Notes: generated from the sequence alone by a model not told the origin. 64,000 nt of DNA from Acidobacteriota bacterium (GCA_050258415.1 JBLMYS010000147.1:3246-67245), one strand, 5' to 3'; shown: positions 6,612 through 35,118, numbered from the stretch's first letter. A program made the numbers and translations.

Positions 6612-6617
6612 GAATGA

Positions 6618-9308: not shown

Positions 9309-9394
9309 GATTAACCTCCCCAAATTCAATGTTTGACAAAAGGCGGCATGTGTAATCTTTATCGCCAGAATAATAAATTCTTTGTACGCTAATT

Positions 9395-9513: not shown

Positions 9514-9552
9514 TTCTTATATATCCGTAATAAAGAAATTACAATTAATTTT

Positions 9553-14478: not shown

Positions 14479-14512
14479 AAAAGGCTGCCATGAACCTCTT
14501 CATAACAGCCTT
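14470..14512. terminator. Bipartite hairpin between convergent genes, with a U-tract for the minus-strand GHL10 gene
   Basis: aaggctg/cagcctt (14481-87 / 14506-12) stacked on atgaa/ttcat (14490-94 / 14499-14503). The A-run 14470-14480 gives a T-run on the minus strand. Confidence 0.5.
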
Positions 14513-14532
14513 CTATCATCTTTGCAGTAGAT

Positions 14533-16962: not shown

Positions 16963-17012
16963 AAGCGCTTCCACTATATCTGAATGTTGGTTATTTAGCA
17001 CTCTGAAAATAG

Positions 17013-17020
17013 CAAATTTA
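17013..17020 (-). promoter_or_regulatory. -7 box candidate TAAATTTG (TAnnTTTG) upstream of GHL10 gene 14533-16962
   Basis: The minus strand reads TAAATTTG. Lies 51 nt upstream of ATG 16962 and downstream of the 17069-17103 terminator. Confidence 0.4.
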
Positions 17021-17068
17021 TACTGAATTCTGAATAGAATTTCGGGGAATAATTGAAGTAAAAGGAGC

Positions 17069-17103
17069 AAAAAAAAGCGGCAGACCCAATTGGGCCTGCC
17101 GCT
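17069..17103 (-). terminator. Intrinsic terminator of GHL10 gene 17132-19534
   Basis: 12-bp stem agcggcagaccc/gggcctgccgct (one mismatch), loop aatt, followed on the minus strand by 8 T. Confidence 0.8.
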
Positions 17104-17131
17104 TTGTAAACTATTACTATATGTATAAGGT

Positions 17132-19534
17132 TTACTTTATAATAATCATTTTACGCGTTGAGACAAATGAGCCTGTTCTTAGCGTATAAAAATAAATTCC
17201 GCTCGGAATGTTCAACTGATTGGAATTAAAATCGGCACTGTAAGAGCCTGCATTCTGATTCCTGTCGACCAGCACTGCAATCTCTTTTCCAAGAACGTCA
17301 AACACACTCAGTCTTACATAACCTTCTTTGGCTATGGAATACCTGATCACGGTCGAGGGATTAAAAGGATTTGGGAAATTCTGCTTTAATGAGTATTCCC
17401 TTACAACCTGTTCCTTCTTTTCTTCCTTCACGTCATTTACCGCGGTCGTCTGAAATCCGAATGTTGAGGACCACTCACCGGTTCCAAGCGTATTTCTTGC
17501 CCTGACGTGCCAATAATGCTTTTTATTCAATGCAAGCACTCTGCTTATTGTAAAAGCCGTATCAGTTACAACCGTATCCAGAACAATTTGAGAAGTCATT
17601 GTTGAGGCAGTTGATAACTGGAACTGGTACTCTGTAGCCTTAGGATCCTTCTGCCATGAGAATTTTGGCGACAAGGATACGTTAGTAGTAGCGTGTGCCG
17701 GAGCAAGAAGAACAGGTTTCATCGGAATACCTGACACAAAACTCATGAACTGTGAGTATGCGCTAAGGCCGCCCTGTCCTGCCGATTTTACTCTCCAGTA
17801 ATACGTCTGTCCTGCAGCAACGCTGGAGAAATAGAAGCTCAGACTCTTGTGTTCAGGTGCAGTAAAAACAATGTCACTGAATAAGGAGTCTGTTGCTATC
17901 TGAACAACGTAGCTTTCTGCCAAAGGCGCACTCTGCCATTTAAGGGTTGCGAATGTATTCGTTTTTGGATAATAATTCGGAGGTGATGTCAGCACCGGAG
18001 CCTGTGGAATCTGATCCGGCATGCTCTGATGGAGTACGTTGCTCATTACGCTTTCGTTTGAATAACGGTCCAGTGCTGTAACCACGTAATAATCGCCGCT
18101 TGTAACTGAATATTTTGCAACTGTTGAGGGAAGGGTTGTTGTTCCATAAGTTGCAAGTATCTTCGATGCATCTTTCAGCATTTCGGCTGTTGGCTGGCTT
18201 TCAAATCTGTAGACAATGTATGAAAATGCCGTATCGCCGTCTGTAGCCTTGGCCGGTGCATCCCATTTCAGGTCATATTTTCCTGTTACCGAATTCTTCT
18301 CGGCCCTCAGGTTAACAGGAGCGTTTGGACGCGTTGTGCTGCCGGGCAGCCACTCCATCTTTGGCGTAACTGCCGGGTACAGGTAATAATTATGCACAAG
18401 GCTATCGGCACAACCTGCATAATTGCCCGTAACACTTTGTGAACTGAAGTATACTTCCCCTTTTACTGTCGGAGTATTACGATTTGCCCTCATTTCCCAG
18501 CCAATTTCATTTGCCCCATATGAGCTATACCTGTATGCCGGGGCTCCGACATAAAGATGTCTTCCGTTTAACGTCGAAGCTCCCGACCATGTAGGAAGAA
18601 GACCGCCATAGTTTGCCGAATATAACTGCGGCATTATATAGTCGATGTATGAGGTACCAGTATGCGATACTCCGCTTTCATCAGTATAATTTCCCTTGAG
18701 CCATCCGAAAGTATCGCAGAAAATCGACAGGTTAACCGAAGGGCCTCCGGCAGGGCTGATGCCAAACTTAACCCAGGGTTTTACAGTCTTTATACTGTCG
18801 TTGATCTCTGCCAGAAGCATGTTCACGTTGTTCATGCGCCATGCTGTCTTATCTGTAAAAGTACCTTTGTAGGACGCAAAAGTAGCATCATCATTAAATG
18901 TTCCATACTCGGTATAAGGATAGAAATAATCGTCAAAATGAATACCGTCCACATCATAGCGGCGGACAATATCCATAATTACGCTGAGCAGATACTTGCG
19001 TACTTCAGGCAGACCGGGATTTAGAAAACGGTACTCGGAGCCGTTGCACTTAATAATCCATTCAGGGTGCCTTAACGCGATGCTTGTTGATCCAAATACA
19101 GGGTCATCTCCAGACATATTCACCCTGTATGGGTTTATCCATGCGTGGAGCTCCATGGCCCTTTTGTGCGCTTCCTGGATTGCGAACTGAAGAGGATCAT
19201 AAGTCGGATCAGAGGGTGCCGCCCCCTCCTGCCCCGTAAGGTACTTCGACCAGGGTTCTCCGATTGAATTCTTGTAAATTGCATCTGCTTTTGGCCTTAC
19301 ATGAAAAAACATTGCATTCATGCCGTAGCTCTTATGCTGATCAAATGTTGAAACAAGCTGGTCTTTTTGAGACTTTATGTCGCTGGCCGAAGTGCCCCTT
19401 GTGGAGGGCCAGTCGATACCAAGCGAGGCTATCCAAACGCCTCTTAATTCCTGCTTTGGATATGTCTGTGAAAATAACAAAGCCGATGTCATTAGGATAG
19501 CAAATAAACAGTAGAATATTTTTTTCATAAGCAT
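17132..19534 (-). CDS. T9SS cargo: GHL10 protein, tandem paralog of 14533-16962
   Basis: 800 aa, collinear with its neighbour along its whole length (ELRGVWIASLGIDWPS, DGIHFDDYFYPYTEYGTFNDD identical blocks). Same FN3-like modules and CTD KQNFPNPFNPSTVIRYSI. Confidence 0.8.
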   Translation of the reverse strand: MLMKKIFYCLFAILMTSALLFSQTYPKQELRGVWIASLGIDWPSTRGTSASDIKSQKDQLVSTFDQHKSYGMNAMFFHVRPKADAIYKNSIGEPWSKYLTGQEGAAPSDPTYDPLQFAIQEAHKRAMELHAWINPYRVNMSGDDPVFGSTSIALRHPEWIIKCNGSEYRFLNPGLPEVRKYLLSVIMDIVRRYDVDGIHFDDYFYPYTEYGTFNDDATFASYKGTFTDKTAWRMNNVNMLLAEINDSIKTVKPWVKFGISPAGGPSVNLSIFCDTFGWLKGNYTDESGVSHTGTSYIDYIMPQLYSANYGGLLPTWSGASTLNGRHLYVGAPAYRYSSYGANEIGWEMRANRNTPTVKGEVYFSSQSVTGNYAGCADSLVHNYYLYPAVTPKMEWLPGSTTRPNAPVNLRAEKNSVTGKYDLKWDAPAKATDGDTAFSYIVYRFESQPTAEMLKDASKILATYGTTTLPSTVAKYSVTSGDYYVVTALDRYSNESVMSNVLHQSMPDQIPQAPVLTSPPNYYPKTNTFATLKWQSAPLAESYVVQIATDSLFSDIVFTAPEHKSLSFYFSSVAAGQTYYWRVKSAGQGGLSAYSQFMSFVSGIPMKPVLLAPAHATTNVSLSPKFSWQKDPKATEYQFQLSTASTMTSQIVLDTVVTDTAFTISRVLALNKKHYWHVRARNTLGTGEWSSTFGFQTTAVNDVKEEKKEQVVREYSLKQNFPNPFNPSTVIRYSIAKEGYVRLSVFDVLGKEIAVLVDRNQNAGSYSADFNSNQLNIPSGIYFYTLRTGSFVSTRKMIIIK

Positions 19535-19690: not shown

Positions 19691-19718
19691 AAACAAAAGC
19701 CGCCCAGGGGCGGCTTTT
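19691..19718 (-). terminator. Intrinsic terminator ending the five-gene TonB-receptor operon
   Basis: aaaagccgcc / ggcggctttt stem with loop cagg. On the minus strand it is followed by TTTTGTTT. Lies 28 nt after stop 19746. Confidence 0.8.
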
Positions 19719-19745: not shown

Positions 19746-21080
19746 TTACTTCATAAGTGTCATCTTGCGGCTTAACATAACGCCGTTTGCATTCAGCTGA
19801 TAGATATAGATGCCTGAAGTAAGGTTCTGGCCGTCAACTCTTACAGAGTAGCTGCCTTTTGTCATCTGGCCGTTAACCAGAGTTGAAACTTCCTTGCCAA
19901 GTATATCATATACTTTCAGAGATACAAATCCGTCCTTTGCAACTGAGAACTTAATCTCTGTTGAAGGGTTGAACGGGTTTGGATAGTTCTGTGAAAGTGA
20001 ATAGCTTTCAACAACTGCGTTTTCTTTCTTTACGCCGGTCTGAAGATTTGCTGTAATATAACGCTGGAGTAGTGGAACGCCAGAAGCATTAAACTGAATA
20101 ATGTAAGCTGTCTTTCCATTAGGACTGAAAGCAATACCTCTGTTTCTTTCTGACAGGTCGTTGCCGAGGAAAGGTGTTGTATACTTCCAAGCAAGGCTGT
20201 CAAGAACCTTCCAGTCAGAAGTTCTTACACCGTAATAGGTTCCTTTGGTAACAAATCTATCCGGCTGTAATGGACCATATGCGCCATTAGGAGCAACCTG
20301 GTAAGAACCGGCGCTGGCGTATAAGAGTTTGTTTACAGGATTCCAACCAATACCTTCAACAGCCCAGCCTATTAATACTGAATCTTTGAGTGCGAAGCTC
20401 TGGAATGCATCCGGCTTCTGGTAAACCCAGGTCTTAAGAGCTGAATATCTCGGTATATAAAGAGTCATACCGTCTTTGCTAACTTCAAGAGTTCTGCCGT
20501 AATCGGCCACAGCGTCAACAGCATTCTCTGAGAAAGTTAAGTTTGAGTCAAGAATTTCAACAGGATTTCCTGGTAATGTATAAGAAACATAAACGTTTCC
20601 TACAGTATCAGCGGCGCAGCGTGTAAGACCAGCTTTGCCTAAATATGTAGCCAGAACTTCACCGGTTTTGTAGTTAAGTTTAACTACTGTCTTGCCCTGT
20701 GAAAGGAGGATGTTTCCTCTGAAATCCTTATTCAAACCTGTGTTTGAGCCGAACCAGAAAGGAAGAACTTTGCCGCTCTTATCTTTCCATGTTCTTACCG
20801 GCGAAATTGTAGCCGGGCTGCCATCAGGATTGAAAACGTATACAGGTACTGTCTTGAACCACTTGTTGCTGTCTGCAACAAATACGGTATCTCTGATGAG
20901 AGTATTGTACTGAGCAACCCAGATCTTGCCGTCAGGATCAACAGCAATACCATGACCAGCTGAACTGCCTTTTAATGTATCAATGTCCCCTTTTCCAAAC
21001 GGGGTCAGTGTCCACTGTGAAAAGGAAGTAGCTGAAAAGGCTATCAACAATGTAACAACGAACAATAGACGTTTCATCAT
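19746..21080 (-). CDS. T9SS cargo: secreted beta-propeller-like protein (NHL/TolB-like repeats), function unknown
   Basis: 444 aa with a signal peptide. GHGIAVDPDGKIWVA-type repeats. CTD SQNYPNPFNPSTEIKFSV. Followed by an intrinsic terminator. Confidence 0.7.
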   Translation of the reverse strand: MMKRLLFVVTLLIAFSATSFSQWTLTPFGKGDIDTLKGSSAGHGIAVDPDGKIWVAQYNTLIRDTVFVADSNKWFKTVPVYVFNPDGSPATISPVRTWKDKSGKVLPFWFGSNTGLNKDFRGNILLSQGKTVVKLNYKTGEVLATYLGKAGLTRCAADTVGNVYVSYTLPGNPVEILDSNLTFSENAVDAVADYGRTLEVSKDGMTLYIPRYSALKTWVYQKPDAFQSFALKDSVLIGWAVEGIGWNPVNKLLYASAGSYQVAPNGAYGPLQPDRFVTKGTYYGVRTSDWKVLDSLAWKYTTPFLGNDLSERNRGIAFSPNGKTAYIIQFNASGVPLLQRYITANLQTGVKKENAVVESYSLSQNYPNPFNPSTEIKFSVAKDGFVSLKVYDILGKEVSTLVNGQMTKGSYSVRVDGQNLTSGIYIYQLNANGVMLSRKMTLMK

Positions 21081-21177
21081 AAATCACTCCTGTTATTTAT
21101 TTGAACTAAAATTATGAAATTATTTAGAAGGTCACCTTAATATAAGAACATCCCTCATTAATTTCATACATTTTTTT

Positions 21178-22497
21178 TTATTTTAATTCCAGTCCGTAAT
21201 ATGGTGCTCCCTGCTTAAACATTAATGTAGAAAATATTTTGGGAGAGAACTCTTTTTCAGTTTCACTGTCATTTACAACCCTGGAATAAACGAGACTTGT
21301 ACCATTTACTTTATCATACGAATTCCAGACAAAAGATGCAAAACCCGGTACAATTACACCCGGAAGTAATGCACTGGCATTTTTTGACGGGCTGACAACT
21401 ACAATTACAGGGGCGGCATCTGTACCAATATACAAATAACCATCCTGGCTGAATGTAATGCCAAGCACTGAGAACGGGACTCCGGCTGCATTGAGTCCCG
21501 GATAAGCTGCCGAAAAGTCGAAATACAATTCCTCGCTGCCGGCAACTATCTCATCGTTCACAATTTTGTAGCGCCATACGCCTTCTTTGTTATCCTTTGT
21601 TCCACCGACATAGAGATAAAGTGTGCCGTTGTCTTTGAAGACCCTGACAGCATTTATCTTTGATGATGTAGTGGCAAAATTGTACTTTGTTGCGGCTGAC
21701 ATGTCCGGCTTGATCCTGAAAATGTTCACGCCTGAACCTGCAGCCCAGATGTTGCCTGAAGGATCAAAATCGAAATCGTTGATATTCTGATCAATTCCCT
21801 GTCCTATATACGGAGCAGGTGTAGGAGCAACACCCGGATTAATTTTCCAGATACCCTTGTTCCTTCTTGCGCCAAAGAGCTGGCCCTGCTGGCCCCATGG
21901 CCCGTAAGCAAACTTCAAAGAAGTCCAGAGCTTTTCAGTTCCCTTTGGAGCGTAATCAGTAAGGTTCCTGTTAACGTCGATTTTTTTAATTCCCTGATAG
22001 ACGTTATTTGTAGCAAGGTAGAGGTAAAGGTTACCATCCCTGTCGAAAGTCAACGTCTGCGGCTGATCCAGGTAGAGGAATTTAGTAAAATATGCGGGCT
22101 GGATCTCCTTTAGAGAATAAGCAACAGGCGCAGCATAATTTGAGGCAGTCGTAACTACTACTCTTATTGCAAGCGCTTCTTTGGGAAGGTTTGGTACTTT
22201 AACCCTTATCTGTGTCGGCGTAGCTGTAATTACAGTACCCGGGACATTATCAAAATAGACTTCTGTATGTGCACTGTCGGAAAAATTGGCACCTGTTATT
22301 GTCAGAGTATCCATACCGGCATATGCAAAATCCTTCGGGGCAACAGAAGTAACTACCGGGTCGGGAGTCCCCTTGCCTTTGTACTCATCATATAAAACTG
22401 GAGCGGCATCTTTACCACAGCCATAATACATGGTGAGCGCCAGGAAGAGCAGTGCCAGGTATTTGATTCTGTTTTTCATGTAAATATTATTTTTCAT
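21178..22497 (-). CDS. Probable lipoprotein with IPT/TIG domain and beta-propeller-like C-terminal region
   Basis: 439 aa. LALTMYYGCGK is a lipobox-like Cys. VTSVAPKDFAYAGMDTLTITGANFS..VYFDNVPGTVITATPTQIRVKVP looks like IPT/TIG. Later repeats FDRDGNLYLY, FDPSGNIWAAG, FSQDGYLYIGT. Confidence 0.65.
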   Translation of the reverse strand: MKNNIYMKNRIKYLALLFLALTMYYGCGKDAAPVLYDEYKGKGTPDPVVTSVAPKDFAYAGMDTLTITGANFSDSAHTEVYFDNVPGTVITATPTQIRVKVPNLPKEALAIRVVVTTASNYAAPVAYSLKEIQPAYFTKFLYLDQPQTLTFDRDGNLYLYLATNNVYQGIKKIDVNRNLTDYAPKGTEKLWTSLKFAYGPWGQQGQLFGARRNKGIWKINPGVAPTPAPYIGQGIDQNINDFDFDPSGNIWAAGSGVNIFRIKPDMSAATKYNFATTSSKINAVRVFKDNGTLYLYVGGTKDNKEGVWRYKIVNDEIVAGSEELYFDFSAAYPGLNAAGVPFSVLGITFSQDGYLYIGTDAAPVIVVVSPSKNASALLPGVIVPGFASFVWNSYDKVNGTSLVYSRVVNDSETEKEFSPKIFSTLMFKQGAPYYGLELK

Positions 22498-22531
22498 TTT
22501 CTTACCATTTATTTACTTATTTGTATTTGGC

Positions 22532-23548
22532 TTATAAAGAGACATTTACGTTTACTCTGTGAACTGCGTTAAAGACACCATATGGAGTGTATGAGTAATC
22601 AACACCAATTCCGTAGTTCTGGTATGACTGCTTTACACCCACACCCAAAGTATAGCTTCTTTCATCAGCCGGGGTATTATAGCCGGCTCTTAAGGAAACT
22701 GTATTCATAAATGTGTACTCGGCTCCTATGTTAACCTGTTCGGGATAATCCCTGTTGTGAACGGCATCAACTGCAAGGAGGAATGAGTGCATATTCTTGT
22801 CCACATTGTCCATCAGGTCAACAGCATTGAAGGAAAGGCCCATTCTGAAAGTAAGAGGAAGCTGGAAGTTTTCCTTTTCAAACCTGGTTTCCTGCGAGAA
22901 GTTCTTTACAGACATTGCAAAGTTAAGACTGCGGAAGCCCGTTCTGTAAAGCAAGCCGAAATCGAAGGCCATTACGCCCCTGACGTGGTCACTTTTGACA
23001 TAACTGCCATCAGAATTAACAGAGGTTACGGCAGCTCCAAGCGACTGTTTTGCATATTTGACGCTACCGCCAAGTGCCAGTTTATCGTTAAGCGCCTTTG
23101 CATAGCTTACGCCAATTGAAAGTGCGTAAGGACGGAAGGTGCCTAATTCAATAAAGCCGTCAGAATTTTTAGCTGAAATGGTTTCGATAAAATCGCCGTA
23201 ATCTACATTCATAGCTGTTAAACCGATTACACCCCAGTCGCCGCCGAAAGGAGCAAATGTTACAGCACCGAACATATATTTGATATCCGCAATCCATGTC
23301 ATGGAACCTGCCGTTGCATTAAGCAGGTTTTCCTGACGGGCGACACTGGAAGGGTTGGCAAAAAGAAATGCAGCATTGCCGTCGAGCGCAGTAACTGCCT
23401 CGCCGAGACCTGCGGTCCTTGCATCCAGTGTTGCACTCATGAACTTCATACCGCTCTGTGCCAGCTTCTGGTTTTCCTGTGCCTGGAGCCTGCCTGAGAG
23501 CAAAGTTCCTAAGATTAAACTTATTGTTATTATAAATATTTTTTTCAT
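22532..23548 (-). CDS. PorV/PorQ-family (FadL-like) outer membrane beta-barrel
   Basis: 338 aa with a signal peptide. N-terminal GMKFMSATLDARTAGLGEAVTALDGNAAFLFANPSSVA matches the FL.i..ARa.alGgA...NPA pattern of PorV/PorQ-type barrels. Alternating beta-strand pattern to the C-terminus. The family call is by eye only. Confidence 0.55.
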   Translation of the reverse strand: MKKIFIITISLILGTLLSGRLQAQENQKLAQSGMKFMSATLDARTAGLGEAVTALDGNAAFLFANPSSVARQENLLNATAGSMTWIADIKYMFGAVTFAPFGGDWGVIGLTAMNVDYGDFIETISAKNSDGFIELGTFRPYALSIGVSYAKALNDKLALGGSVKYAKQSLGAAVTSVNSDGSYVKSDHVRGVMAFDFGLLYRTGFRSLNFAMSVKNFSQETRFEKENFQLPLTFRMGLSFNAVDLMDNVDKNMHSFLLAVDAVHNRDYPEQVNIGAEYTFMNTVSLRAGYNTPADERSYTLGVGVKQSYQNYGIGVDYSYTPYGVFNAVHRVNVNVSL

Positions 23549-23571
23549 TTTTATTACCTGCCTGCAAATAA

Positions 23572-25677
23572 TTATCGGATTATGGAAAATTTAGCAATGT
23601 GCTTTTCACCCGTTTCCGTATTGGTTATTACGGCAATATAGATACCGCTTACGAGCAGCTGGTTTGAACTTGTTATAGATCTCCAGTAAACATCACCGCT
23701 TCCGTTGTCGTGATTAAGTGTCTGGATAAGCTCACCCATCTCGGTATATATCTTAATTGTACATTTACCGGGAGTGTTATAGAAGTGGAGCTCATTCGTG
23801 AACTGGCCACCGAATCTTGTAGCGTCAACATCCGAGCCGAGGAAGAACGGATTTGGAATGATCCTGACATCACTAATATTCTTTCCGGCAGGCCTAAGGA
23901 GGTTTGCTCCGTCATAAGTCTGTGTATAATACCTGCTGCTCTTTAGTGTATAAGCAGGAATATTCAGTGCAGTATTTGCAGGCTGCTGGTCGCCTACAGA
24001 CAGTATATAATAGAAGTAGTACAAACCGCGTACAGGGCTCATATCTTCATAGCTTCTTTCATTAGCTCCTGCCTTGTAAATAAGATGGTATGTACTATCG
24101 TACTGTCCAAGCGCTCTGTAGATTTCAAATCCTTTCACCGAAGGATCATCACTTTCCCATGAAAGAGCGATCTTGTCACCACCTGAGGTAACGGAGAACA
24201 GTTTCGGAGGTCTCGGGGGCTGAACAAGATTCCAGTTATTATTAAAGTTGTCAGTTGCTCTTCTCCAAGTCTGCATGAGAGAGTCTTTGCCTGTCATGAC
24301 AAATTCATTTTTTTCTTTTTCAACTGCTGTAAACTGCGGTGTCTTGTAGGCATTCTTGTACTTCTTTCCCATCTCAACTGCAGCTTCGCGGCTGATGCCG
24401 GCGGCACCTTGAACCATTACAATCTTCACACTCTGTCCTGGTGCAAGTGTGTATGGGCCGTAAGAGTTGTTTGCAGAGAAACCGCCTGAAGTTCCCTTCT
24501 TTGGGGCCTCAGTCTGGTTTGCAAATTCCTTAAAGTTTACCACACCGCCTGCCATTGCTGCCGGATGAACACTGTATGCGTGGCGCGGGTTTGAAGTTGG
24601 CCTCTGAATGAAATTCAGATACTCATCTTTCATTTTTCCAAGGTCAAAAGCACTGTTTCCTGAATATTCCGAAATATCAGAAGATTCATAAGTTGTAACA
24701 GGCAGCTTCTTATTGTCTGTCGGATCTGTAGGTGAAGTATCAGCATGCAGCGTCAGAACACCCATAAACTGCGGAGCGGCAAGTCTTCCTACTGTATCCG
24801 AAGCAGGAGCATAACCAGATGACGATGATGGATCCCAGATCGGGCCGCCTATATTGTTATAGGTAACGATCTTTTCCGGGAAGTATCCGTGCCATGCGAA
24901 CTGTGTACGGAAATTTTCGCCCTGAGGATCTGGCAGAACACCATCGCCTCTTGCATCAAGCATTGTATTCATACCCCAGCCTGAACCGTTACCGATTACA
25001 TACCTGGTCTGCTTGCAGGGAGCCCAGCGGTAATTAAAGTAGAAGTATACATCCTTTAACGTCTGGTCTAATACTTTTACATTCTTCTCGCTCGTGTAGC
25101 CTGTGTTTGTAAAGGTATACTCCATTACTATATAGTTGTCATGATAAGGATGACTGAACTCAAAGATCTTCCTTTCCATCGATATGCCAAGCAGGGTGTT
25201 AACCTTGTTTACAATCAATCTGTCATACGGCAGGTCGGGCTTTATTTCATCGATCTCAACCGTCTTGTCATATGTCGGGTTACCGTCAACTGTAATAGTC
25301 GGCTGCTCGAATTTGCTGTACATTTTAAGTTCAACCGGGAAGAATTCACCTGTACCGGAGACTCTGGGACCTACGTGAATTACTCTGTAGGGATAGTTTC
25401 CGGAACCATCGGTAAAGTCCTTCGTTCCGATCCAAAGACCTGTGGCGCACTGCATGTCCTGGTTCTTATATATACCAGGCCATTCAAAGCCGTCCTGCTG
25501 CTCCTTCGGCATGCGGGCTTCTTCAATTTCACCACCTATAGCGGTATAGAAATTGTGAAGCGAACCGACGCTCATATTCTTGAAGGCATACTGGGCGAAG
25601 GAGACTCTGGAGCTCATCAAAAGCATCACTGCCAGTAACGACATTGCGGCGGCATATTTATTAAAACTTTTTGTCAT
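23572..25677 (-). CDS. Large secreted protein of unknown function with FN3-like module and T9SS-CTD-like tail
   Basis: 701 aa. Signal peptide MSLLAVMLLMSSRVSFAQ. No catalytic motif recognised. C-terminal IIPNPFF...GIYIAVITNTETGEKHIAKFSIIR resembles a sorting domain. Lies 16 nt downstream of the TonB-dependent receptor gene. Confidence 0.6.
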   Translation of the reverse strand: MTKSFNKYAAAMSLLAVMLLMSSRVSFAQYAFKNMSVGSLHNFYTAIGGEIEEARMPKEQQDGFEWPGIYKNQDMQCATGLWIGTKDFTDGSGNYPYRVIHVGPRVSGTGEFFPVELKMYSKFEQPTITVDGNPTYDKTVEIDEIKPDLPYDRLIVNKVNTLLGISMERKIFEFSHPYHDNYIVMEYTFTNTGYTSEKNVKVLDQTLKDVYFYFNYRWAPCKQTRYVIGNGSGWGMNTMLDARGDGVLPDPQGENFRTQFAWHGYFPEKIVTYNNIGGPIWDPSSSSGYAPASDTVGRLAAPQFMGVLTLHADTSPTDPTDNKKLPVTTYESSDISEYSGNSAFDLGKMKDEYLNFIQRPTSNPRHAYSVHPAAMAGGVVNFKEFANQTEAPKKGTSGGFSANNSYGPYTLAPGQSVKIVMVQGAAGISREAAVEMGKKYKNAYKTPQFTAVEKEKNEFVMTGKDSLMQTWRRATDNFNNNWNLVQPPRPPKLFSVTSGGDKIALSWESDDPSVKGFEIYRALGQYDSTYHLIYKAGANERSYEDMSPVRGLYYFYYILSVGDQQPANTALNIPAYTLKSSRYYTQTYDGANLLRPAGKNISDVRIIPNPFFLGSDVDATRFGGQFTNELHFYNTPGKCTIKIYTEMGELIQTLNHDNGSGDVYWRSITSSNQLLVSGIYIAVITNTETGEKHIAKFSIIR

Positions 25678-25693
25678 TTTTTCCTCGTCTAAA

Positions 25694-28600
25694 TTAGAAT
25701 ATTTCCAATGAGAATCTTAAACCCCAATAAATATTTCTGGGATTCAGGAAAGTAAAGTAATCCTGGTTCGGCATATCTATATAAGATTTATTCTTCTTCC
25801 ATTCAGCCTTCTGAGCATCAGTTGCTTTAACATCCCATGCATGGTATTCGCCAGTCCTGTAGTCACCAGGCTTGTCGTCGCCATATTCATAGATCTTGGG
25901 ATCATTGGTATTAGAATAAGGGGCTTTGATGTTGCCATCGTTATCCCTTGGGAAGTTTGCAAAAACGCTCTCTGGCAGGTGCAACGACTTCATGTAAGCT
26001 TCATAATCCTTTGTATCTGCAAAGCCTGCATTGCTGCCTAAGTAATCCATGTACTTAATATTGAGTACATTCTGCATATCAGCAAAGAGCTGAAGATTTA
26101 ATGGACCGAACTTTAGGTTCTTTGCTATCTTCAGGTCGAGGCCGTAGTAATCTTTCCACTGAATGTTGTTCTGAACACCCGGTATTGAACCGCCGCCTGT
26201 CCAGGTATCGTAACCGCCTGAACTCCAGCTGGCCAGAACGCTTAAACGCCAGTCTTCAAGAGGATAAAATCCGCCGAGCTTGGGACCGAATTCCATTGGT
26301 GTAAAGAAGTCCACATTGGCTCTTGCATAGGGCTGCGGAACCGGCTTTGTAACGAGATTATAGTTGTTAAGTGTCTCGATTTCATAAGTTCTCTGTACCT
26401 GTGAGTTTTCATTGTAAGCAGCAAAACCGAACCTGCCGCTTGTTGAAACCATATAGGTATAGTTAACAAAGCCCTGTACCCAGTTGCCGCGGTTCTTTGT
26501 AATCGTGGCTTCGAAGCCTCTGATGTCGGCATAAGAATTAGGCTTCGGAGTTGAGTAGTTTGTAGCACCGCTGCGGCTTGTATAAGTTACTGATAAAGGC
26601 TGCTGTGAAACGTCCTTATAATATCCTGAGAGGCGAACCAGGTACTCTTCGAAGAGACTCTGTTCGTAACCCAGCTCGTACATGATTGTTCTGGGCAACG
26701 GATTGTTCGGATTTGCAACATAGACAACTGCGTTATTGTCAGTAAATCTTCTGAGCAGATACAGGTTTGTAGGAGTAGGCAGCTGTCTGAAGTGACCATA
26801 GTTAAAGAACAGCTTGCTCGATTCGCTTAACGGGAATGCAATTGCAACACGCGGGCTTACTGTTACGTTAGCCTTTGTAGGCTGCTTCTGAAGCAGGGTG
26901 TCAATTCCCAGCGACTTGGCAGAGGAGAATGCGTCTGAATAAGGGTTATTTATCACATACCAGTCTTCATTGGCGGCCGAGTAATCCACTCTTAAACCAA
27001 CGTCGGCTATCATGCCTTCAAATTCAAGTTTGTCTTTAACATAAACCGCACCACGTGTAGGATAAGCATTCCACGTAGTTCTGTACCTTCCCGAAGGCAG
27101 ATACTTGTCGTAAGAGCCGTAATTGGCAAGGTTTTCACTATAGCCGAATTCAAAACCGGCCTTCAGGTTGTTATATTTGTTCAACTGTGAAGTAAGGTCA
27201 AATTTCAGGTTGTATGCTGTAACCTTGCTGGTGTCTCTGGAGTTACTGAAACCAACACTCATTCTGAAGTCTTCAATACCTGTGCTGGGTGATTCCAGGA
27301 AGCCGAACGGAGCTTCATCAACATATAAGTTTCCAAACTTATATACTCTGCTCGTATCTCTGTACCTTCCGGGGCTTGTGTCATATCTTGACTGGAAGCG
27401 GCTTACTGTAACTTCGTAAAATGTATTCGGATTCAGAACGTGAGTCAGTTTTGCACCGATATTATTTACGTTAACAGTTGATGGTGTAAAATAATCATTT
27501 GTAAAAATTCTGTTTTCGATTGTCTTGGCATTTGAGAAAAAGCTTAACTGAGCAGCAATGCTTGCCGGAGAACGGAACATTCCTATATCGCCTACGCCAT
27601 TGCTTGATGTTCCCTGCTGCTGGCCAACGAGTCCTTCGAGGTTAAGTTTCATACCCTGAGCCAGATCGGCAGTCAGTTTTACCTGGAAGTTATTATCCGT
27701 GTATGCATCGCGTGAAAGTGGCACAATGTACATTTCACGTGTTCCTCTGTATGCAGCCAGAAATCTCAGGTTTCCTAAATGCTGGCTGATTCCCGGGAAG
27801 TAGCCCGTAACGGAAAGATCCACGTCATAGTCAGGCTTATTGATATCAGTGTTTCTTCTGTGCTGGAAGAGGTATAATTTCTGCAGTTCCTGCGGAGTAA
27901 GAGCTGTTGAAGGATTATCCCTGAACATCTGCTCCGATAATTGGTTCCAACCTCCGAATTCAGGATACTGTGCCTGTGTGTAGTCGTCCCATGCGCCGTT
28001 TTTTGTACCGGTCCATGCAACTGCATCATCAACAAAAGGTCTGATCCAGAATGCATTTGCATCCTGAGGTGAATTTCCGAAGTGCTTCGGGCCTGTCGGC
28101 CTGTAGCGGCTATAGAAGGAAACGCCGAAACGGTCGGTCTTACCTTCTTTTGTTACAACGTTAACAAGGCCTGAACGGATGTTTCCGTATTCAGCACTGA
28201 AACCACCTGTCTGAACCTGAACTTCCTCAATAGCGGTTGTGCTTAAGCCTGTATAAGGCTGGTTTGAACGTTCATCTCTCAGGCTGACACCGTTTAGGAG
28301 CCAGGTTGTCTGATCGGCTGAACCTCCGCGGAAACTGCCGCCCTGAACGCCTGCCTGTAAACCGATAATATTTGATACCTGGGCTACAGGAAGGTTTTCC
28401 ATCTCTTTGCCGCTTAAGTTAAGCCTGCTGGCGGCAACGTCTTTTTGAACAACTGGGGTCTGAGCAACAACTACAACTTCAGCTGTCTGAAGTGAAGTTT
28501 CAACAAGTGCAATGTCAGCATCTGTTGTTTGATCGATGTTTACTCTAACATCCGTAACGGTAGTAGTATTATAACCTATAAGGCTGGCCTTAAGGTTATA

Positions 28601-28813
28601 CTTTCCCGGGGGAACGTTTAAAATTACATAGTAGCCTTCAGCATTAGAAGCGGCTCCCATTTTTGTTCCTTCCAAGACTACGTTTGCACCTATAAGAAGT
28701 TCGCCAGTTCTGGAATCTTTAACCACACCGGCAATTTTTCCTCCTGTCTGTGCAAATAATGAAATGTCTGTTAGAAGTAAAAAAAGCAGAATTATTGGTA
28801 ACACTAATCTCAT
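25694..28813 (-). CDS. TonB-dependent outer membrane receptor with N-terminal carboxypeptidase-regulatory-like domain (SusC-sized, no SusD partner)
   Basis: 1039 aa. GKIAGVVKDSRTGELLIGANVVLEGT..GYYVILNVPPGKYNLKASLIGY is a CarboxypepD_reg-like domain. Plug region (..NIIGLQAGV..LLNGVSLRDE..VQVQTGGFSAEYGN..). C-terminal aromatic YWGLRFSLEIF. Confidence 0.85.
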   Translation of the reverse strand: MRLVLPIILLFLLLTDISLFAQTGGKIAGVVKDSRTGELLIGANVVLEGTKMGAASNAEGYYVILNVPPGKYNLKASLIGYNTTTVTDVRVNIDQTTDADIALVETSLQTAEVVVVAQTPVVQKDVAASRLNLSGKEMENLPVAQVSNIIGLQAGVQGGSFRGGSADQTTWLLNGVSLRDERSNQPYTGLSTTAIEEVQVQTGGFSAEYGNIRSGLVNVVTKEGKTDRFGVSFYSRYRPTGPKHFGNSPQDANAFWIRPFVDDAVAWTGTKNGAWDDYTQAQYPEFGGWNQLSEQMFRDNPSTALTPQELQKLYLFQHRRNTDINKPDYDVDLSVTGYFPGISQHLGNLRFLAAYRGTREMYIVPLSRDAYTDNNFQVKLTADLAQGMKLNLEGLVGQQQGTSSNGVGDIGMFRSPASIAAQLSFFSNAKTIENRIFTNDYFTPSTVNVNNIGAKLTHVLNPNTFYEVTVSRFQSRYDTSPGRYRDTSRVYKFGNLYVDEAPFGFLESPSTGIEDFRMSVGFSNSRDTSKVTAYNLKFDLTSQLNKYNNLKAGFEFGYSENLANYGSYDKYLPSGRYRTTWNAYPTRGAVYVKDKLEFEGMIADVGLRVDYSAANEDWYVINNPYSDAFSSAKSLGIDTLLQKQPTKANVTVSPRVAIAFPLSESSKLFFNYGHFRQLPTPTNLYLLRRFTDNNAVVYVANPNNPLPRTIMYELGYEQSLFEEYLVRLSGYYKDVSQQPLSVTYTSRSGATNYSTPKPNSYADIRGFEATITKNRGNWVQGFVNYTYMVSTSGRFGFAAYNENSQVQRTYEIETLNNYNLVTKPVPQPYARANVDFFTPMEFGPKLGGFYPLEDWRLSVLASWSSGGYDTWTGGGSIPGVQNNIQWKDYYGLDLKIAKNLKFGPLNLQLFADMQNVLNIKYMDYLGSNAGFADTKDYEAYMKSLHLPESVFANFPRDNDGNIKAPYSNTNDPKIYEYGDDKPGDYRTGEYHAWDVKATDAQKAEWKKNKSYIDMPNQDYFTFLNPRNIYWGLRFSLEIF

Positions 28814-29156: not shown

Positions 29157-30005
29157 ATGAAAAGTCAATTTCCTTTAATCATGTTTCTTTGGGCTTTGCT
29201 TTCCTTTGCAATTTGTGCCCAGGAGGAAAAAATTGAGTGGAAAAGAGCCCCGGCAACCGAAATACCCGAACTTCACCTCTTCCAGTCCACACAGGTATTC
29301 AGCCTTCCGACTGCTGAAACGCTTCAGAAGGGAAATCTCCAGTTCGAAATATCTCACCGCTTCTTCCCGACTGTAAATACCGGTATAAGAAACTTTTTCG
29401 GACTCGACGGGCCTGTATTTATGCGCCTCGCCCTGGGCTACGCATTGACCAATAAACTCTCAGTCACCTTGGGCAGAAGCAACCTGAACGGGAATGTGGA
29501 CCTCAGGCTCAAATACAGAATACTCCAGATCCCGGACGGCTTTATGCCTATAGTCGCTGCCCTCAGACTCGGAGGAGCCTGGAATACCGAAACCGGCAGA
29601 AGCTCCACAGACACGAGAAACTACCAATATTACGGACAACTTATCCTGAATGCCATGTACGGCAACGTACTGGGACTTGGACTGGTACCTTCCTATCTAT
29701 ATAATAGCAACATTTTTACGCGCGAGGTGGAGCATACTTTTACTCTCGGAACCTACCTTGAAGGATACCTTACACACAGACTCGGCCTTATTTTTGAATG
29801 GAGCCCTGTCCTTTCGGGCTACAGACTGAACGCCAACCCGATGGCCTTCGGCATTGAAATTAACACGGGAGGTCACTTCTTTAAGATCCTCCTTACAAAC
29901 AGCACATACCTGAACCCTTCACAGTACCTTGCTGGAACGGATGACCCGGCCAGTGGCAAGAACTGGAGGCTCGGCTTTAATATCACGCGCCTGTTCGGAT
30001 TCTAA
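29157..30005 (+). CDS. Outer membrane beta-barrel protein of unknown function
   Basis: 282 aa with a signal peptide. Alternating-strand pattern. C-terminal NITRLFGF is an OMP beta-signal. AGGAG SD upstream. Followed by a strong terminator. Confidence 0.6.
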   Translation: MKSQFPLIMFLWALLSFAICAQEEKIEWKRAPATEIPELHLFQSTQVFSLPTAETLQKGNLQFEISHRFFPTVNTGIRNFFGLDGPVFMRLALGYALTNKLSVTLGRSNLNGNVDLRLKYRILQIPDGFMPIVAALRLGGAWNTETGRSSTDTRNYQYYGQLILNAMYGNVLGLGLVPSYLYNSNIFTREVEHTFTLGTYLEGYLTHRLGLIFEWSPVLSGYRLNANPMAFGIEINTGGHFFKILLTNSTYLNPSQYLAGTDDPASGKNWRLGFNITRLFGF

Positions 30006-30540: not shown

Positions 30541-30775
30541 GCCTCAAAGGCGGAAAAAGTTCATGAAAAACTGTGGAATCTATCGATATAAATCCCGTAA
30601 TGCATACCTTTACAACAAGGACGGCAGATAAAAGCAAAAGGCAAATGACAGTTTTGGAAATCAATAAAGACGCGGCATACTTTTTTGGCAAATATGTTTC
30701 TTTTATTTTTTTATAATTAAATTCATATTGCAGTTAATTTATTCTTTATATTCTTTAATTTTTGGCAAGAGTTTT

Positions 30776-33700
30776 ATGCGCCCGGAAATCCAAAACGTTA
30801 AAAAAATTCTCTTTTCAAATGTTGTTTGTCTTTTACTTTTGCTGCTATCCTGCGGCAGCCCCCTGCTCTACGCCCAGAATAATCTTACGACTTTTGAACA
30901 CATTTCAATTGAACAGGGACTTTCACAAAGCTCTATTAATTCAATTATTCAGGACTATAAGGGCTTTATGTGGATAGCTACGGCTGACGGACTGGACCGT
31001 TACGACGGCTATTCTTTTAAAATCTTCAGAAATATTCCACAGCAAACAGGATCCCTTTCCGATAACAGCGTTTCCGCGGTCTATGAGGATCATTCCGGCA
31101 ATCTCTGGGCTGGCACACTCCTCGGTAACCTGAATAAATACGACAGAAAAAAAGAACGCTTTACAAAATACAGCTTCGGAAGCGACTCCGGCTACTCAAG
31201 CCCTATTTTAACAGCTATCCCCGAATACCCCCTTACTTTCTCAAGATTTAACGACAGAACTATTACTTCTATCTCCGGCGATAAGAAAGGAAGGCTCTGG
31301 ATCGGTACATGGGGACAGGGAATCTTCAGCTTTGAGCCACAGACCGGAAAAATATTCCACTTTACACATGACCCTAAGGACCCGAACTCCATCAGCAGCA
31401 ACAGAATAGTTACTTTAATGGAGGATAAATCGGGCACACTCTGGGCCGGTACTTTCGGGGGTGGACTAGACAGAATTGAAAGAAAAATAAACGGCAGCAC
31501 GCCTGAAATAAAACTTTATGTCACCCGTTTCCAGAATATCCCCATGCTCCCGGGCAGCCTGAGCGATAACCGCGTGACTTCACTCTTCCAGGACCGCGAC
31601 GGAAGCCTGTGGATAGGAACTTTCGGAGGAGGACTCTGCAAAATGCCTTTTAACCTCCTTAAGGCAGAGGACCCCTCAAAAGTAAACTTCCTCCTCTTTA
31701 AGAATACCCCCGGTAACAGATCCTCTCTCAGCAGTAACTGGATCATGAAAGTAATCCAGGACCGCCTGGGATCTTTATGGATTGCCACCTTCGGCGGCGG
31801 CCTCAACAGGCTCGACTCCGGTACAGACAAATTCGCCGTCTTTAAGAACGACCCTTTGAACCCCGGCAGCCTCTCGGATAATGACGTCATCTCTCTTTGC
31901 GAGGACCAGTCGGGCATTATCTGGATCGGCACCCACCTTGGAAAAGGAATTAACAGGTACGACCGCAGCAGAAACAAGTTTACCCACTACAAACATATCC
32001 CGGGTGACCCTGCAAGCTTAAGCGATAATGTCGTCTGGACATTTTCTGAGGATAAGGAAGGAAAAATATGGATCGGAACTTACAGGGGGGGACTTAATGA
32101 ATTCGACCGCCAGAGCCATAAATTTAAGAGCTTCAAAAATAACCCCTCCAACCCTAACTCCATTAGCAGCAATCATATTAGAGCCGTTTATACGGATAAG
32201 AATGATAACCTATGGATAGGGACTTATAACGCCGGACTCAACTTTTTCGACCGGAAAACCGGAAAGTTTACCACCTATAAGCATAAGGCGAATGATTCTT
32301 CGAGCTTAAGTGAAAACCAGGTCATCTCCATTCTGGAAGACAGATCCGGCAACCTCTGGGCCGGCACATTCGGTGGAGGCCTGGACAGGGTTATAAAAAA
32401 TAAAGGACAGCTTTCTTTTGTTCATTACAAAAGTAACCCCTCTGACCCGAAAAGCCTTTCTGATAACAGAGTATATAAGATCTATGAGGATAAAGACGGC
32501 ACACTCTGGATCGGCACTTTCGGTGGAGGCTTAAGTAAATTTGACCCCGCAACCGGGACCTTTATCAATTACAAACACGACCCGTCTAACCCGAACAGCC
32601 TCAGCGATAACAGGGTCATATCAATTTATGAGGATTTCCAGGGTAACCTCTGGCTCGGTACATACGGAGGAGGACTTAACCGCTTCGACCCCCATACAGG
32701 AAAATTCTATAAATATATGCAGGACGGATCCTTAAGCGGCGTGGTCTACGGTATTCTTGAGGATAACGACCATAACCTCTGGATCAGCTCCGATAACGGA
32801 CTTGCAAGATTTACCCCCTCTACTTCGGCTTTCATTAATTACGACCTCCACGATGGTCTCCAGAGCATGGAGTTCAGCGGAGGCGCTTACTATAAATCGC
32901 ACACGGGCGAAATGTTCTTCGGCGGCATTAACGGATTTAATTCATTCTACCCCGACAGCATTAAAGTTAATACCCATATACCCCCTGTTGTAATAAGCGC
33001 TTTCAGAATTTTTAATAAGGTGGTCGATGGTGAGAACAACGAGATAATTTTAACAAATAAGGAAAACTTTTTCTCCTTTGAATTCGCCGCGCTCGATTAT
33101 ACAAACCCCGAGCAGAACCGATATGCCTATAAACTTGAGGGCTTCGACGACGACTGGCATTATGTTGATGCTTCAAGAAGACTTGCCAACTATACAAACC
33201 TCGATCCCGGGAACTACGTCTTCCATGTAAAAGGCTCTAATAACGACGGCGTGTGGAATGAAAAAGGCGCGGAAGTTAAAATTACAATCCTCCCTCCTTT
33301 CTACCGCACCTGGTGGTTCATTTTCCTTGCCGTAGTCATCATCGGAGGCACACTTACTTATTTTATTGCCAGCAGAATCAGCAACCTCCTGGCAATAGAA
33401 AGACTTAAGACAAAACTTGCGGCCGACCTGCACGACAATATCGGATCGGGACTTACGGAAATTTCCATACAAAGCCAGGTCCTTGCTGCCCAGCTTAATA
33501 AAAATAACAACGATGAATTAAAACAGAAACTTCTTAATATAAGCGATACTTCCGGCCAGCTCATAGACAATATGAGCGATATTGTCTGGGTGGTAAACCC
33601 GAAACGCGACACTCTCTACGACCTCATTCTGAGGCTTAAAGATTCATATTCGGAAATATTTTCTTCACTTGGAGTCTCCTTTAAGATTCATAACCTTGAG

Positions 33701-34129: not shown

Positions 34130-34768
34130 ATGATATCAGTAATTATAGTTGAAGACAACAAGACGATACGCGAAGGACTCTCGGCTCTGATTAACGGCAC
34201 CGAAGGTTTCTCATGCATCGCCAGCTACGGCGACTGCGAAAGTTTTCTAAAAAACCTCGAATGCTCGAGCGTCGACGTAGTGCTTATGGATATCGGGCTT
34301 CCGGGCATGTCGGGAATTGAAGGCGTTATTAAAGCAAAAAAAATATGCCCCGACCTGAATATTCTTATATTAACGGTTTACGAGGAAAGCCAGGTGATAT
34401 TTGAAGCCCTCTGTGCGGGTGCCTGCGGCTACCTGGTCAAAAGGACGCCTCCTTTAAGGCTCCTTGAGGCGATAAAAGATGCATACGAAGGGGGATCTCC
34501 CATGAGCTCGCACATCGCACGCAAAGTTGTAACAGTGTTCCAGCAGCACACAAATCCCCTTTTTCCCGACTCCCAGTTCGACCTGACGCAAAGGGAAAAG
34601 GAGGTCTTAACGGGACTTGCCGAAGGGAGCAGTTACCTTGACATTGCGCAGTCGCTTTTTATAAGCCTTGATACAGTGCGTCATCACATAAGAAACATAT
34701 ATAGAAAGCTTCACGTCCACTCCCAGTCAGAAGCCGTAGCCAAAGCATTAAGAAAGGGACTCATATAG
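34130..34768 (+). CDS. NarL/FixJ-family response regulator (REC + LuxR-type HTH)
   Basis: 212 aa. VIIVEDNKTIREGL .. VDVVLMDIGLPGMSG. LTQREKEVLTGLAEGSSYLDIAQSLFISLDTVRHHIRNIYRKL. Confidence 0.9.
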   Translation: MISVIIVEDNKTIREGLSALINGTEGFSCIASYGDCESFLKNLECSSVDVVLMDIGLPGMSGIEGVIKAKKICPDLNILILTVYEESQVIFEALCAGACGYLVKRTPPLRLLEAIKDAYEGGSPMSSHIARKVVTVFQQHTNPLFPDSQFDLTQREKEVLTGLAEGSSYLDIAQSLFISLDTVRHHIRNIYRKLHVHSQSEAVAKALRKGLI

Positions 34769-34972: not shown

Positions 34973-35118
34973 TTGAATTTCCTCTTCATTTCATCCCCCG
35001 AATTCTGCGCTTCAGGCCGCTATTCCGGCACCTCGGTCCAATTGCTCTTTTTCTGCTTTTGCCTAAATCTTAACTTTACCTGACAGTTTATTCCAGCATA
35101 CTAAATTTGGAGCGCTAT

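Follow-up and report, generated by a model that had tools for sequence, protein, structure and literature searches.

A SusD-less operon resembling polysaccharide utilization loci, with a recurring core of a TonB-dependent receptor, a beta-rich secreted protein, and a PorV/PorQ-family barrel

Gene layout of the locus

SusC/SusD pairs are the standard model of polymer uptake in bacteria of the Fibrobacterota-Chlorobiota-Bacteroidota (FCB) group. The 64,000-nucleotide (nt) stretch of Acidobacteriota bacterium DNA analyzed here (GCA_050258415.1, JBLMYS010000147.1:3246-67245; hereafter the window, meaning the whole stretch at its full length) carries an Ignavibacteria-type operon of five minus-strand genes. 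These genes encode a TonB-dependent receptor, a secreted protein of 701 amino acids (aa) that we refer to as X701, a barrel of the PorV/PorQ family, a lipoprotein with a TIG domain, and a protein that ends in a type-A C-terminal domain (CTD) of the T9SS (type IX secretion system). The first three recur together in other genomes and are referred to as the triad. The open reading frame (ORF) calls and the hairpin that closes the five-gene unit are the following.

25694-28813, minus strand: TonB-dependent receptor, 1039 aa (ORF call)
23572-25677, minus strand: X701, 701 aa (ORF call)
22532-23548, minus strand: PorV/PorQ-family barrel, 338 aa (ORF call)
21178-22497, minus strand: TIG lipoprotein, 439 aa (ORF call)
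19746-21080, minus strand: type-A CTD protein, 444 aa (ORF call)
19691-19718, minus strand: intrinsic-terminator-like hairpin with a 12-bp stem, followed by UUUUGUUUU

The genes are separated by 16, 23, 34, and 97 nt, exactly the arrangement read by an earlier note on this DNA, which was made from the sequence alone and which also described a clean terminator at the end of the unit. Folding bears out the latter: the hairpin has a free energy of -20.6 kcal/mol (z = -5.7), and none of 200 shuffled sequences (0/200) was as stable. A consensus terminator scan did not flag this hairpin, though it is visible in the sequence. Reading of the protein sequences gives signal peptides on all five products. 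In four of the five, cleavage is before Gln (…LFA|QTGG in the receptor, …SFA|QYAF in X701, …LQA|QENQ in the barrel, and …SFS|QWTL in the 444-aa protein), and the fourth-gene product has a lipobox with Cys27 instead of a type I site. Two genes for GHL10 enzymes with CTDs follow downstream on the same strand, each with its own terminator; both products match PF02638, in agreement with the co-orientation that had been described for them. The operon had also been called SusD-less, and indeed none of its five proteins (0/5) matches a SusD model in Pfam or NCBIfam.

Conservation of the gene order

Relatives of the locus were collected by a pattern scan; keeping one genome per GTDB species gave 523, and 80 loci were retained, with each count below taken over the loci that have enough flanking sequence. 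The 80 loci come from Ignavibacteriales, Melioribacteraceae (including the cultured Stygiobacter electus 09-Me), metagenome-assembled genomes (MAGs) of Ignavibacterium album, KSB1/Zhuqueibacterota, Calditrichota, Kryptoniota, and MAGs labeled Rhodothermales. The receptor gene lies directly upstream of X701 in 73 of 76 loci, and a PorV-family barrel gene lies directly downstream of X701 in all 78 (78/78). The TIG lipoprotein gene is next after the barrel in 67 of 75 loci, a CTD protein comes next after the TIG lipoprotein in 62 of 71, and a GHL10 gene is found within 8 kb (<=8 kb) of X701 in 46 of 83. Compared with the proteins of the window, the receptor has a median identity of 53%, X701 of 50%, and the barrel of 48%, and the TIG and CTD proteins reach 33-37% (the TIG lipoprotein at about 33%, and the body of the 444-aa protein at about 32% across loci). 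Since both the order and the identity of the triad genes exceed those of the TIG and CTD genes, we regard the triad as the core of the locus and the rest as accessory. Of the five-gene order, whose conservation the earlier note had named as a check on its reading, the first three genes form the stable part, and the TIG and propeller genes vary as accessories. Adjacency by chance was also considered, and it is ruled out by the recurrence of the gene order across the 80 loci of other genomes.

In several genomes, two or three triads are arranged in tandem. The receptor, X701, and barrel of these triads diverge together (the X701 paralogs are 35% identical). Each module thus has a barrel of its own, which would not be needed if the barrel were a general secretion shuttle.

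Some loci (L012, L016, L041, L059, L075, and L084) carry a paralogous module with the order barrel, receptor, X701 paralog, and TIG protein, often in tandem with the first form; the gene order of the triad is therefore permuted between subfamilies. The loci nearest to the window, L005 (86% identity) and L008 (70% identity), are labeled as Syntrophomonadaceae and Bacillota MAGs. As they carry a diderm, FCB-type operon, the contigs of these two loci are probably mis-binned Ignavibacteriales DNA.

The receptor and the barrel

The receptor begins with its signal peptide, followed by a CarboxypepD_reg extension (residues 27-115), the TonB-box-like stretch AEVVVVAQ, a Plug domain (residues 123-211), and a large, presumably barrel-forming region that ends in a terminal Phe. 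Both recognizable domains are above threshold (CarboxypepD_reg in Pfam, E 1e-18; Plug PF07715, 29.6 bits versus a cutoff of 23.9), as expected for the SusC-sized TonB-dependent receptor with a CarboxypepD_reg domain that had been proposed. Yet the protein is not a member of the SusC family. Its score against the SusC/RagA model TIGR04056 is 50.7 bits, far under the cutoff of 368, and the alignment covers only residues 26-300, i.e., the extension and the plug. The locus is likewise not a polysaccharide utilization locus (PUL) in the strict (PULDB) sense, in that the neighboring pair satisfies neither the susC-like nor the susD-like model. With a profile of 24 receptor orthologs, matches to TonB-dependent transporters of solved structure (9gbc_A, E 5e-11; PqqU; YncD) were confined to the extension and the plug, which indicates that the presumed barrel is very divergent. 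The receptor has no match to a Pfam barrel model (E 0.01), with the limit that it was left unchecked whether the library includes a model for Oar-type barrels. Its size, its terminal Phe, and the position of the region after the plug are compatible with a barrel, and the receptors of sister triads match barrel models. The median identity of the receptor to 71 distant orthologs is 52-60%.

The 338-aa barrel carries a type I signal peptide and belongs to the FadL-like outer-membrane family. Against the PorV/PorQ family model NF033709 it scores 164.5 bits (cutoff 90), and the barrels of related triads score 184-221 bits. Both equivalog thresholds fail (PorQ NF033711, 70.7 versus 220 bits; PorV NF033710, 56.4 versus 250 bits). 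We therefore consider the barrel a paralog within the family and not PorV, PorQ, or the T9SS shuttle itself; of the earlier description as a PorV/FadL-like barrel, membership of the PorV/PorQ family stands, and the protein is neither PorV nor PorQ proper. Its sole relative among solved structures is PorV of F. johnsoniae (6h3i_F, E 8.5e-5). No FadL transport model and no PorP/SprF model was matched by the barrel. The Pfam labels Toluene_X and UPF0164 are seen on such barrels.

X701: family and fold

X701 has a type I signal peptide and no lipobox, and it matches no Pfam family. More than 1059 full-length homologs at about 50% identity were found, all annotated as hypothetical. In a profile search against 1.84 billion cluster representatives, the family comprises 869 clusters (50% identity) at E<=1e-30. 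An AlphaFold2 model based on 54 homologs (predicted local distance difference test score, pLDDT, 87.9; predicted template modeling score, pTM, 0.84) is mostly beta and shows three parts, an N-domain of about 460 residues, an FN3 domain, and a C-terminal beta-sandwich. We refer to the last of these as CTD*. The parts map to the window as follows.

24220-25596, minus strand: X701 N-domain, residues 28-486, beta-supersandwich with helical inserts
23893-24222, minus strand: X701 FN3-like domain, residues about 486-595
23575-23880, minus strand: X701 CTD*, residues 600-701

Foldseek matches of the N-domain are to sandwiches of GH94 phosphorylase, GH116, GH63, dextran dextrinase, and ExoMA2, and to the P1 domain of YidC (E 5e-7 to 1e-4, TMq 0.30-0.35). 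In the glycoside hydrolases and phosphorylases, the matched part is the non-catalytic N-terminal beta-supersandwich, and the X701 model has no (alpha/alpha)6 catalytic domain. The list obtained with the full-length model is dominated by tandem-FN3 structures. Modeled alone, the N-domain gives moderate scores (pLDDT 69.5, pTM 0.79), yet it returns the same GH94/GH116 sandwich matches as the full-length model. For the FN3 part, profile matches in the PDB are to Fn3 domains of pectate lyases and to Fn3-like proteins (3b4n, E 8e-5). Moreover, the N-domain occurs elsewhere fused to BNR/Sortilin propellers or to beta-helix/DUF1565 domains, in proteins that end in type-A CTDs. Because it is fused to such domains in other T9SS cargo, we regard it as a modular extracellular domain that is associated with glycans.

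SusD is an all-alpha protein of tetratricopeptide repeats. The possibility that X701 is a divergent SusD is ruled out by the confident, mostly beta model (pLDDT 87.9) and by the fact that X701 is not a lipoprotein. The idea that it is a known enzyme is unsupported, as there is no sequence match over the N-domain in Pfam, NCBIfam, or PDB, and the fold matches are non-catalytic only. The fold and family searches thus leave intact the earlier description of a 701-aa secreted protein with no recognized motif and a CTD-like tail; the note itself had listed a divergent SusD or a known enzyme as outcomes that would overturn its reading.

X701 could instead be a new extracellular enzyme that cleaves or modifies glycans by means of a sandwich resembling galactose mutarotase. 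The barrel would then serve only to secrete or anchor this one protein, and uptake of the product through the receptor would not involve X701 as a lid. The identity of about 50% across phyla and the many invariant Asp, Glu, His, Arg, and Trp residues in the N-domain are what an enzyme would display; beta-supersandwich folds can be catalytic, and the N-domain is found in other T9SS cargo beside beta-helix and BNR domains typical of carbohydrate-active enzymes. Set against this, searches with Pfam, NCBIfam, and PDB sequences return no catalytic family, and the fold matches cover only non-catalytic N-domains of glycoside hydrolases. An enzymatic role also leaves it unexplained why adjacency to a receptor follows CTD* when the head is unrelated (see below). 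We consider such an enzyme unlikely.

CTD* and its coupling to the barrel and the receptor

CTD* is the best-conserved region of X701, with 33% of its columns at least 90% conserved, compared with 24% in the N-domain. Its motif reads (I/V)(I/V)PNP(F/Y)…P..C(T/D)I(K/R)I(Y/F)T..G(E/D)L(I/V)…H…G(S/K)…W…(V/A)(S/Y)G(I/L/V)Y…G…KF.II(R/K). The PNP(F/Y) at its start is a motif typical of T9SS CTDs. Nonetheless, CTD* is under threshold in every T9SS CTD model (CHU_C, PF13585, 17.0 bits versus 27; FlgD_ig, 14.9 bits), and X701 has no match to Por_Secre_tail, TIGR04183, or PF18962. The type-B model CHU_C is weakly matched by 24 of 54 members of the X701 family, all below threshold (best E 3.6e-5). CTD* also weakly matches the C-terminus of PorZ (NF052228, E 2e-4; 5m11 by both profile and Foldseek).

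CTD* is also present on proteins that are unrelated to X701, and this made it possible to ask which part of X701 goes with the neighboring genes. A search seeded with the CTD* tails of unrelated cargo returned 733 proteins, mostly short or split gene calls; of these results, three genomic contexts were inspected (L085, L086, and L087). All three (3/3) have the order receptor, cargo, barrel. A receptor with CarboxypepD_reg or Plug is followed by an unrecognized CTD* protein of 881-1094 aa (in split gene calls) and then by a PorV-family barrel. The barrels of L085 and L086 score 203-211 bits, which places them in the PorV/PorQ family, and that of L087 is fragmented and unscored. At two further loci that are cut upstream (L048 and L084), only the pair of CTD* cargo and barrel is visible. 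The converse comparison uses proteins that combine the X701 N-domain with a type-A CTD. None of the four has a receptor directly upstream (0/4), and none of the three with sequence on that side has a barrel downstream (0/3). Because the direct and the converse comparison agree, we conclude that barrel and receptor follow the class of the C-terminal domain and not the head domain; the sample is small and its outcome uniform.

Two observations concern the cargo and the gene calls. The body of the CTD* cargo at L048:2-1192 matches the NCBIfam model "phage tail tube protein" (NF052337, E 1.4e-8), under its cutoff. In L086 and L087, each gene of the triad is split over a large number of short calls; for example, a 1094-aa ORF stops 2 nt before the 134-aa ORF that carries CTD*. 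Both are long-read metagenome contigs, and frameshift errors are the likely cause of the fragmented calls; such errors account for the search having returned mostly proteins of 100-200 aa.

The barrel might have nothing to do with the CTD of X701 and act as a common FadL-type channel that passes a hydrophobic or amphipathic molecule (for example, lipid-linked or acylated fragments set free from the substrate). PorV and PorQ do lie within the FadL superfamily, and the Toluene_X and UPF0164 labels point the same way. It is the PorV/PorQ model that the barrel satisfies, however, and not the models for FadL transport, and its presence tracks the CTD* of the neighboring protein in every locus examined, which makes an independent channel very improbable in our judgment.

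The coupling raises the possibility that CTD* is a third class of T9SS-type CTD, with a cognate barrel that is always adjacent and always coupled to a receptor. Together the three would then form a modular, lipoprotein-independent mount that fits TonB-dependent transporters with interchangeable substrate-binding heads; so far, these include the X701 sandwich and at least two unrelated proteins of 900-1200 aa. We offer this as a tentative generalization, to which we give somewhat less than even odds.

Accessory and neighboring genes

The TIG domain of the 439-aa lipoprotein is above threshold (PF01833, 56.6 versus 20.9 bits), and matches to Reg_prop and SBBP are below it. Its lipobox Cys27 follows a hydrophobic stretch and is kept in 63 of 63 homologs, so that the protein is the IPT/TIG lipoprotein it had been taken for. 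As judged from sequence, we take it as a candidate surface glycan-binding protein whose C-terminal part is probably a beta-propeller. Acidic residues follow the Cys in most homologs (CAEDP, CNEED, CKEEP; C-[ANSK]-[EQD]-[ED]). This motif, as seen in the window and in homologs from L003 to L084, resembles the signal for surface export of lipoproteins in Bacteroidota, which suggests that lineages outside Bacteroidia may also flip lipoproteins to the cell surface. The 444-aa protein had been read as propeller cargo of the T9SS. Its type-A CTD is clear (PF18962, 40.4 versus 27 bits; TIGR04183, 39.1 versus 23 bits). The propeller is indicated by sub-threshold matches only (NHL, SBBP, and Reg_prop), with NHL, DPPIV_N, and similar models matching the body of the protein.

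The genes and terminators that flank the operon are the following.

17132-19534, minus strand: GHL10 TIM-barrel enzyme, 800 aa, with Ig-like domains and a type-A CTD (PF02638, E 2.5e-53, 181.7 bits; PF18962, 32.4 bits)
17074-17105: terminator downstream of this GHL10 gene
14533-17070, minus strand: second GHL10 enzyme, 845 aa, with fn3/Ig domains and a type-A CTD (PF02638, E 6e-61, 206.7 bits; PF18962, 32.8 bits)
14479-14514: terminator downstream of the second GHL10 gene
29157-30005, plus strand: DUF5777 membrane beta-barrel (PF19089, E 5e-57), between the sensor gene and the operon
30728-34042, plus strand: sensor kinase with an 11-repeat Reg_prop region (E 6e-76), Y_Y_Y (E 6e-22), HisKA_3, and HATPase, divergent from the operon
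34130-34768, plus strand: LuxR-type response regulator (Response_reg and GerE)

The 800-aa GHL10 protein matches the catalytic domain of Cwp19 (5oq2) with E 6e-73. In three loci (L024, L033, and L070, at about 170-4450), a distant PorV-family barrel (116-129 bits to the barrel of the window) lies directly upstream of a GHL10-CTD gene, just before the receptor; a further barrel paralog may be tied to the GHL10 enzyme there. The pair of Reg_prop/Y_Y_Y kinase and LuxR regulator is also found beside the cassette in close relatives, and in loci of Melioribacteraceae as well. The DUF5777 gene is restricted to the closest relatives (L005-L009) and absent from more distant loci, and for this reason it probably lies outside the core.

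A proposed model for SusD-independent capture and import

We suggest that the locus functions in SusD-independent, PUL-like capture and import of a glycan, with X701 as the surface partner of the receptor, held by its CTD* on the neighboring barrel. As judged from sequence features, the probability of this model is roughly one in two. In this scenario, all five proteins would cross the inner membrane by the Sec pathway, as their visible signal peptides indicate. The CTDs suggest that passage over the outer membrane would be via the T9SS for X701, for the propeller protein, and for both GHL10 enzymes. At least seven proteins with type-A CTDs are encoded within the window, which indicates that the organism has a working T9SS. 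The type-A CTDs would be cleaved; X701 would retain CTD* and stay bound to the PorV-like barrel next to it, a retention to which both the strict CTD*-barrel coupling and the unusually high conservation of CTD* point. X701 would thereby be tethered to the outer membrane much as PorZ is on PorQ and PorU on PorV. PorU and PorZ keep their CTDs and remain bound to PorV and PorQ, respectively, and cognate PorV-like barrels have been proposed to shield CTDs from cleavage, in parallel to type-B CTDs with PorP/SprF (PMC10202324).

The barrel is proposed to sit beside the receptor, such that the beta-supersandwich of X701, which is carbohydrate-binding-like, might cover the mouth of the receptor and serve there as a lid or as the partner that binds substrate, where SusD would otherwise be. 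A precedent for this kind of role is the FadL-like barrel BamG of the Bacteroidota BAM complex, which keeps an extracellular subunit in place against BamA (PMC12578637). Substrate capture could be aided by the TIG lipoprotein and the propeller protein, and the secreted GHL10 enzymes might cut the polymer outside the cell. The products would be sensed by the Reg_prop/Y_Y_Y kinase and the LuxR regulator, which could then switch the locus on. The earlier note suggested a locus that assembles a surface complex of its own out of components delivered by the T9SS, and the coupling of CTD*, barrel, and receptor strengthens this idea; the complex as such and its dependence on the T9SS are inferred.

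Our best guess for the substrate is a peptidoglycan-type glycan from dead cells, since the GHL10 domains are close homologs of Cwp19. Cwp19 of C. difficile has been described as a peptidoglycan lytic transglycosylase (PMC6016235) and as a slow peptidoglycan hydrolase (PMC5765458).

The same genes could also work in the opposite direction. Myxococcus Oar, a TonB-dependent transporter with a CarboxypepD_reg domain, is reportedly needed for the secretion of PopC. By analogy, the TonB-dependent barrel and the PorV-like barrel of the triad would secrete or attach X701 or other cargo, with no part in nutrient uptake; alternatively, the barrel would be a locus-specific shuttle for the enzymes with type-A CTDs. 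The N-terminal CarboxypepD_reg domain of the receptor fits such a role, and PorV is the known shuttle of T9SS cargo (PMC10202324). However, a glycan-type sensor, the GHL10 enzymes, and the TIG lipoprotein give the locus the look of nutrient acquisition, the barrel goes with CTD* cargo and not with type-A cargo, and even where triads stand in tandem each has a single barrel. Likewise, the receptor lacks a match to the Pfam barrel models (with the limit given above for an Oar-type model). Taken together, an export function appears improbable to us.

Several points weigh against capture and import with X701 as the partner of the receptor. The barrel region of the receptor has no sequence relative among solved TonB-dependent transporters in a search of the PDB. 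Barrels of the PorV/PorQ family and FadL-like barrels are also found outside T9SS contexts, as exemplified by the UPF0164 label. No core T9SS gene lies within the 64-kb window, and, as CTD* fails every curated CTD threshold, export of X701 by the T9SS is putative. In addition, an identity of about 50% across phyla is more than one would expect of a protein that only binds, and would be in keeping with an enzyme. The motif resembling a lipoprotein export signal (see above) means that a T9SS route for X701 is not explained by a lack of surface lipoproteins. With respect to the substrate, the assignment rests on a single characterized homolog, and DogH, another GHL10 protein, has been reported to be active on starch.

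Relation to known systems

The likeness to the PULs of Bacteroidota extends over much of the locus. It has a SusC-sized transporter with a CarboxypepD_reg extension, a next gene that encodes a secreted partner, a TIG lipoprotein as in surface glycan-binding proteins, enzymes that are secreted and act on glycans, and a Reg_prop/Y_Y_Y sensor as in the periplasmic domain of the hybrid two-component regulators of PULs. Unlike SusC/SusD PULs, it has no SusD, its receptor fails the SusC/RagA model, and the partner, a beta-rich protein with a T9SS-like tail, is no lipoprotein. The PorV-family barrel is, moreover, an obligatory third member here.

Proteins that stay on a barrel through their CTD offer a second comparison. 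As in the PorZ-PorQ and PorU-PorV pairs, a protein with a T9SS-type CTD is proposed to keep its CTD on a 14-stranded barrel of the PorV/PorQ family. In contrast to these pairs, the genes are neighbors, there are many copies per genome, and a TonB-dependent receptor is always present; X701 also does not resemble PorZ or PorU in the body of the protein. For type-B CTDs, the CTD class is said to determine the PorP/SprF-like barrel partner. The arrangement of type-B cargo and PorP/SprF barrels (SprB-SprF in Flavobacterium) is similar in that the cargo gene adjoins its own barrel gene and the class of CTD sets the partner (PMC10202324). Here, by contrast, the barrel is of the PorV/PorQ family, CTD* is under the CHU_C cutoff, and there is a link to a TonB-dependent receptor.

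Lids other than SusD have been described in Bacteroides (BtuG, XusB, DUF4625, DUF4876, and others; Price et al., bioRxiv 10.1101/2023.03.17.533168). Like these, X701 is a non-SusD protein adjoining a non-SusC transporter, with conserved proximity and a proposed role as cap and substrate binder. The lids of Price et al. are all lipoproteins and handle small substrates, whereas X701 is not a lipoprotein, has a dedicated barrel, and lies in a glycan-type locus with a SusC-sized receptor. With regard to geometry, the arrangement proposed here resembles BamG-BamH, where a FadL-like, 14-stranded barrel packs on a larger barrel and its loops hold an extracellular subunit (PMC12578637). That machine is a different one, with a barrel of another family and no T9SS-type CTD, and the BamG model reaches only E 3e-4 on one related barrel.

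We did not find the architecture of receptor, X701, and barrel described in the literature examined, which covers the field incompletely, so that a prior description is possible. The cluster is not described in the genome papers on Melioribacter roseus, Caldithrix abyssi, and Zhuqueibacterota, and in the literature on "PorV-like" proteins we found no link to TonB-dependent receptors. The recurring triad suggests a hitherto undescribed way to build a nutrient-capture complex on the cell surface. If so, it would be a second way to assemble the surface partner of a transporter, beside SusD and the lipoprotein lids, and paralogs of the PorV family would gain a role outside the secretion machine. 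Should CTD* indeed be a third class of CTD, the triad would be a functional counterpart of SusC/SusD for FCB lineages outside Bacteroidia, among them Ignavibacteriota, Calditrichota, and KSB1, with hundreds of species using it. The model also provides a testable function for a so far unannotated family of about 870 clusters (50% identity), and it could aid the prediction of substrates for the abundant degraders, most of them uncultured, of sediments, hot springs, and wastewater reactors. If GHL10 is indeed linked to peptidoglycan, the locus would mark the recycling of bacterial cell-wall necromass.

Other features of the window

The window is very rich in T9SS cargo. On the minus strand at 441-9329, three consecutive genes encode secreted proteins of 889, 984, and 903 aa, each with a BNR/Sortilin or Reg_prop propeller, fn3, and a type-A CTD. 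At 47462-51085, a protein of 1207 aa has a CTD as its only recognized part.

Three further regions concern transport and signaling. A plus-strand ORF at 36210-40745 (1511 aa) joins a complete AcrB-type pump of the resistance-nodulation-division (RND) class (ACR_tran, E 5e-266, residues 4-1017) to a TolC-like OEP region (residues about 1325-1507), and the gene for an HlyD-type adaptor (35107-36168) precedes it. Such a fusion of a pump with an outer-membrane channel is unusual; alternatively, a stop codon could have been lost. On the minus strand at 44762-46585 lies a histidine kinase with an ETR1_N domain that resembles ethylene receptors (E 8e-32), followed by PAS, HisKA, and HATPase, and a hybrid response regulator/kinase (42730-44226) adjoins it. 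Finally, the plus-strand gene at 9502-12546 encodes a protein of 1014 aa in which a receiver domain is combined with DUF5752 and PPDK_N, an odd architecture for a signaling protein.

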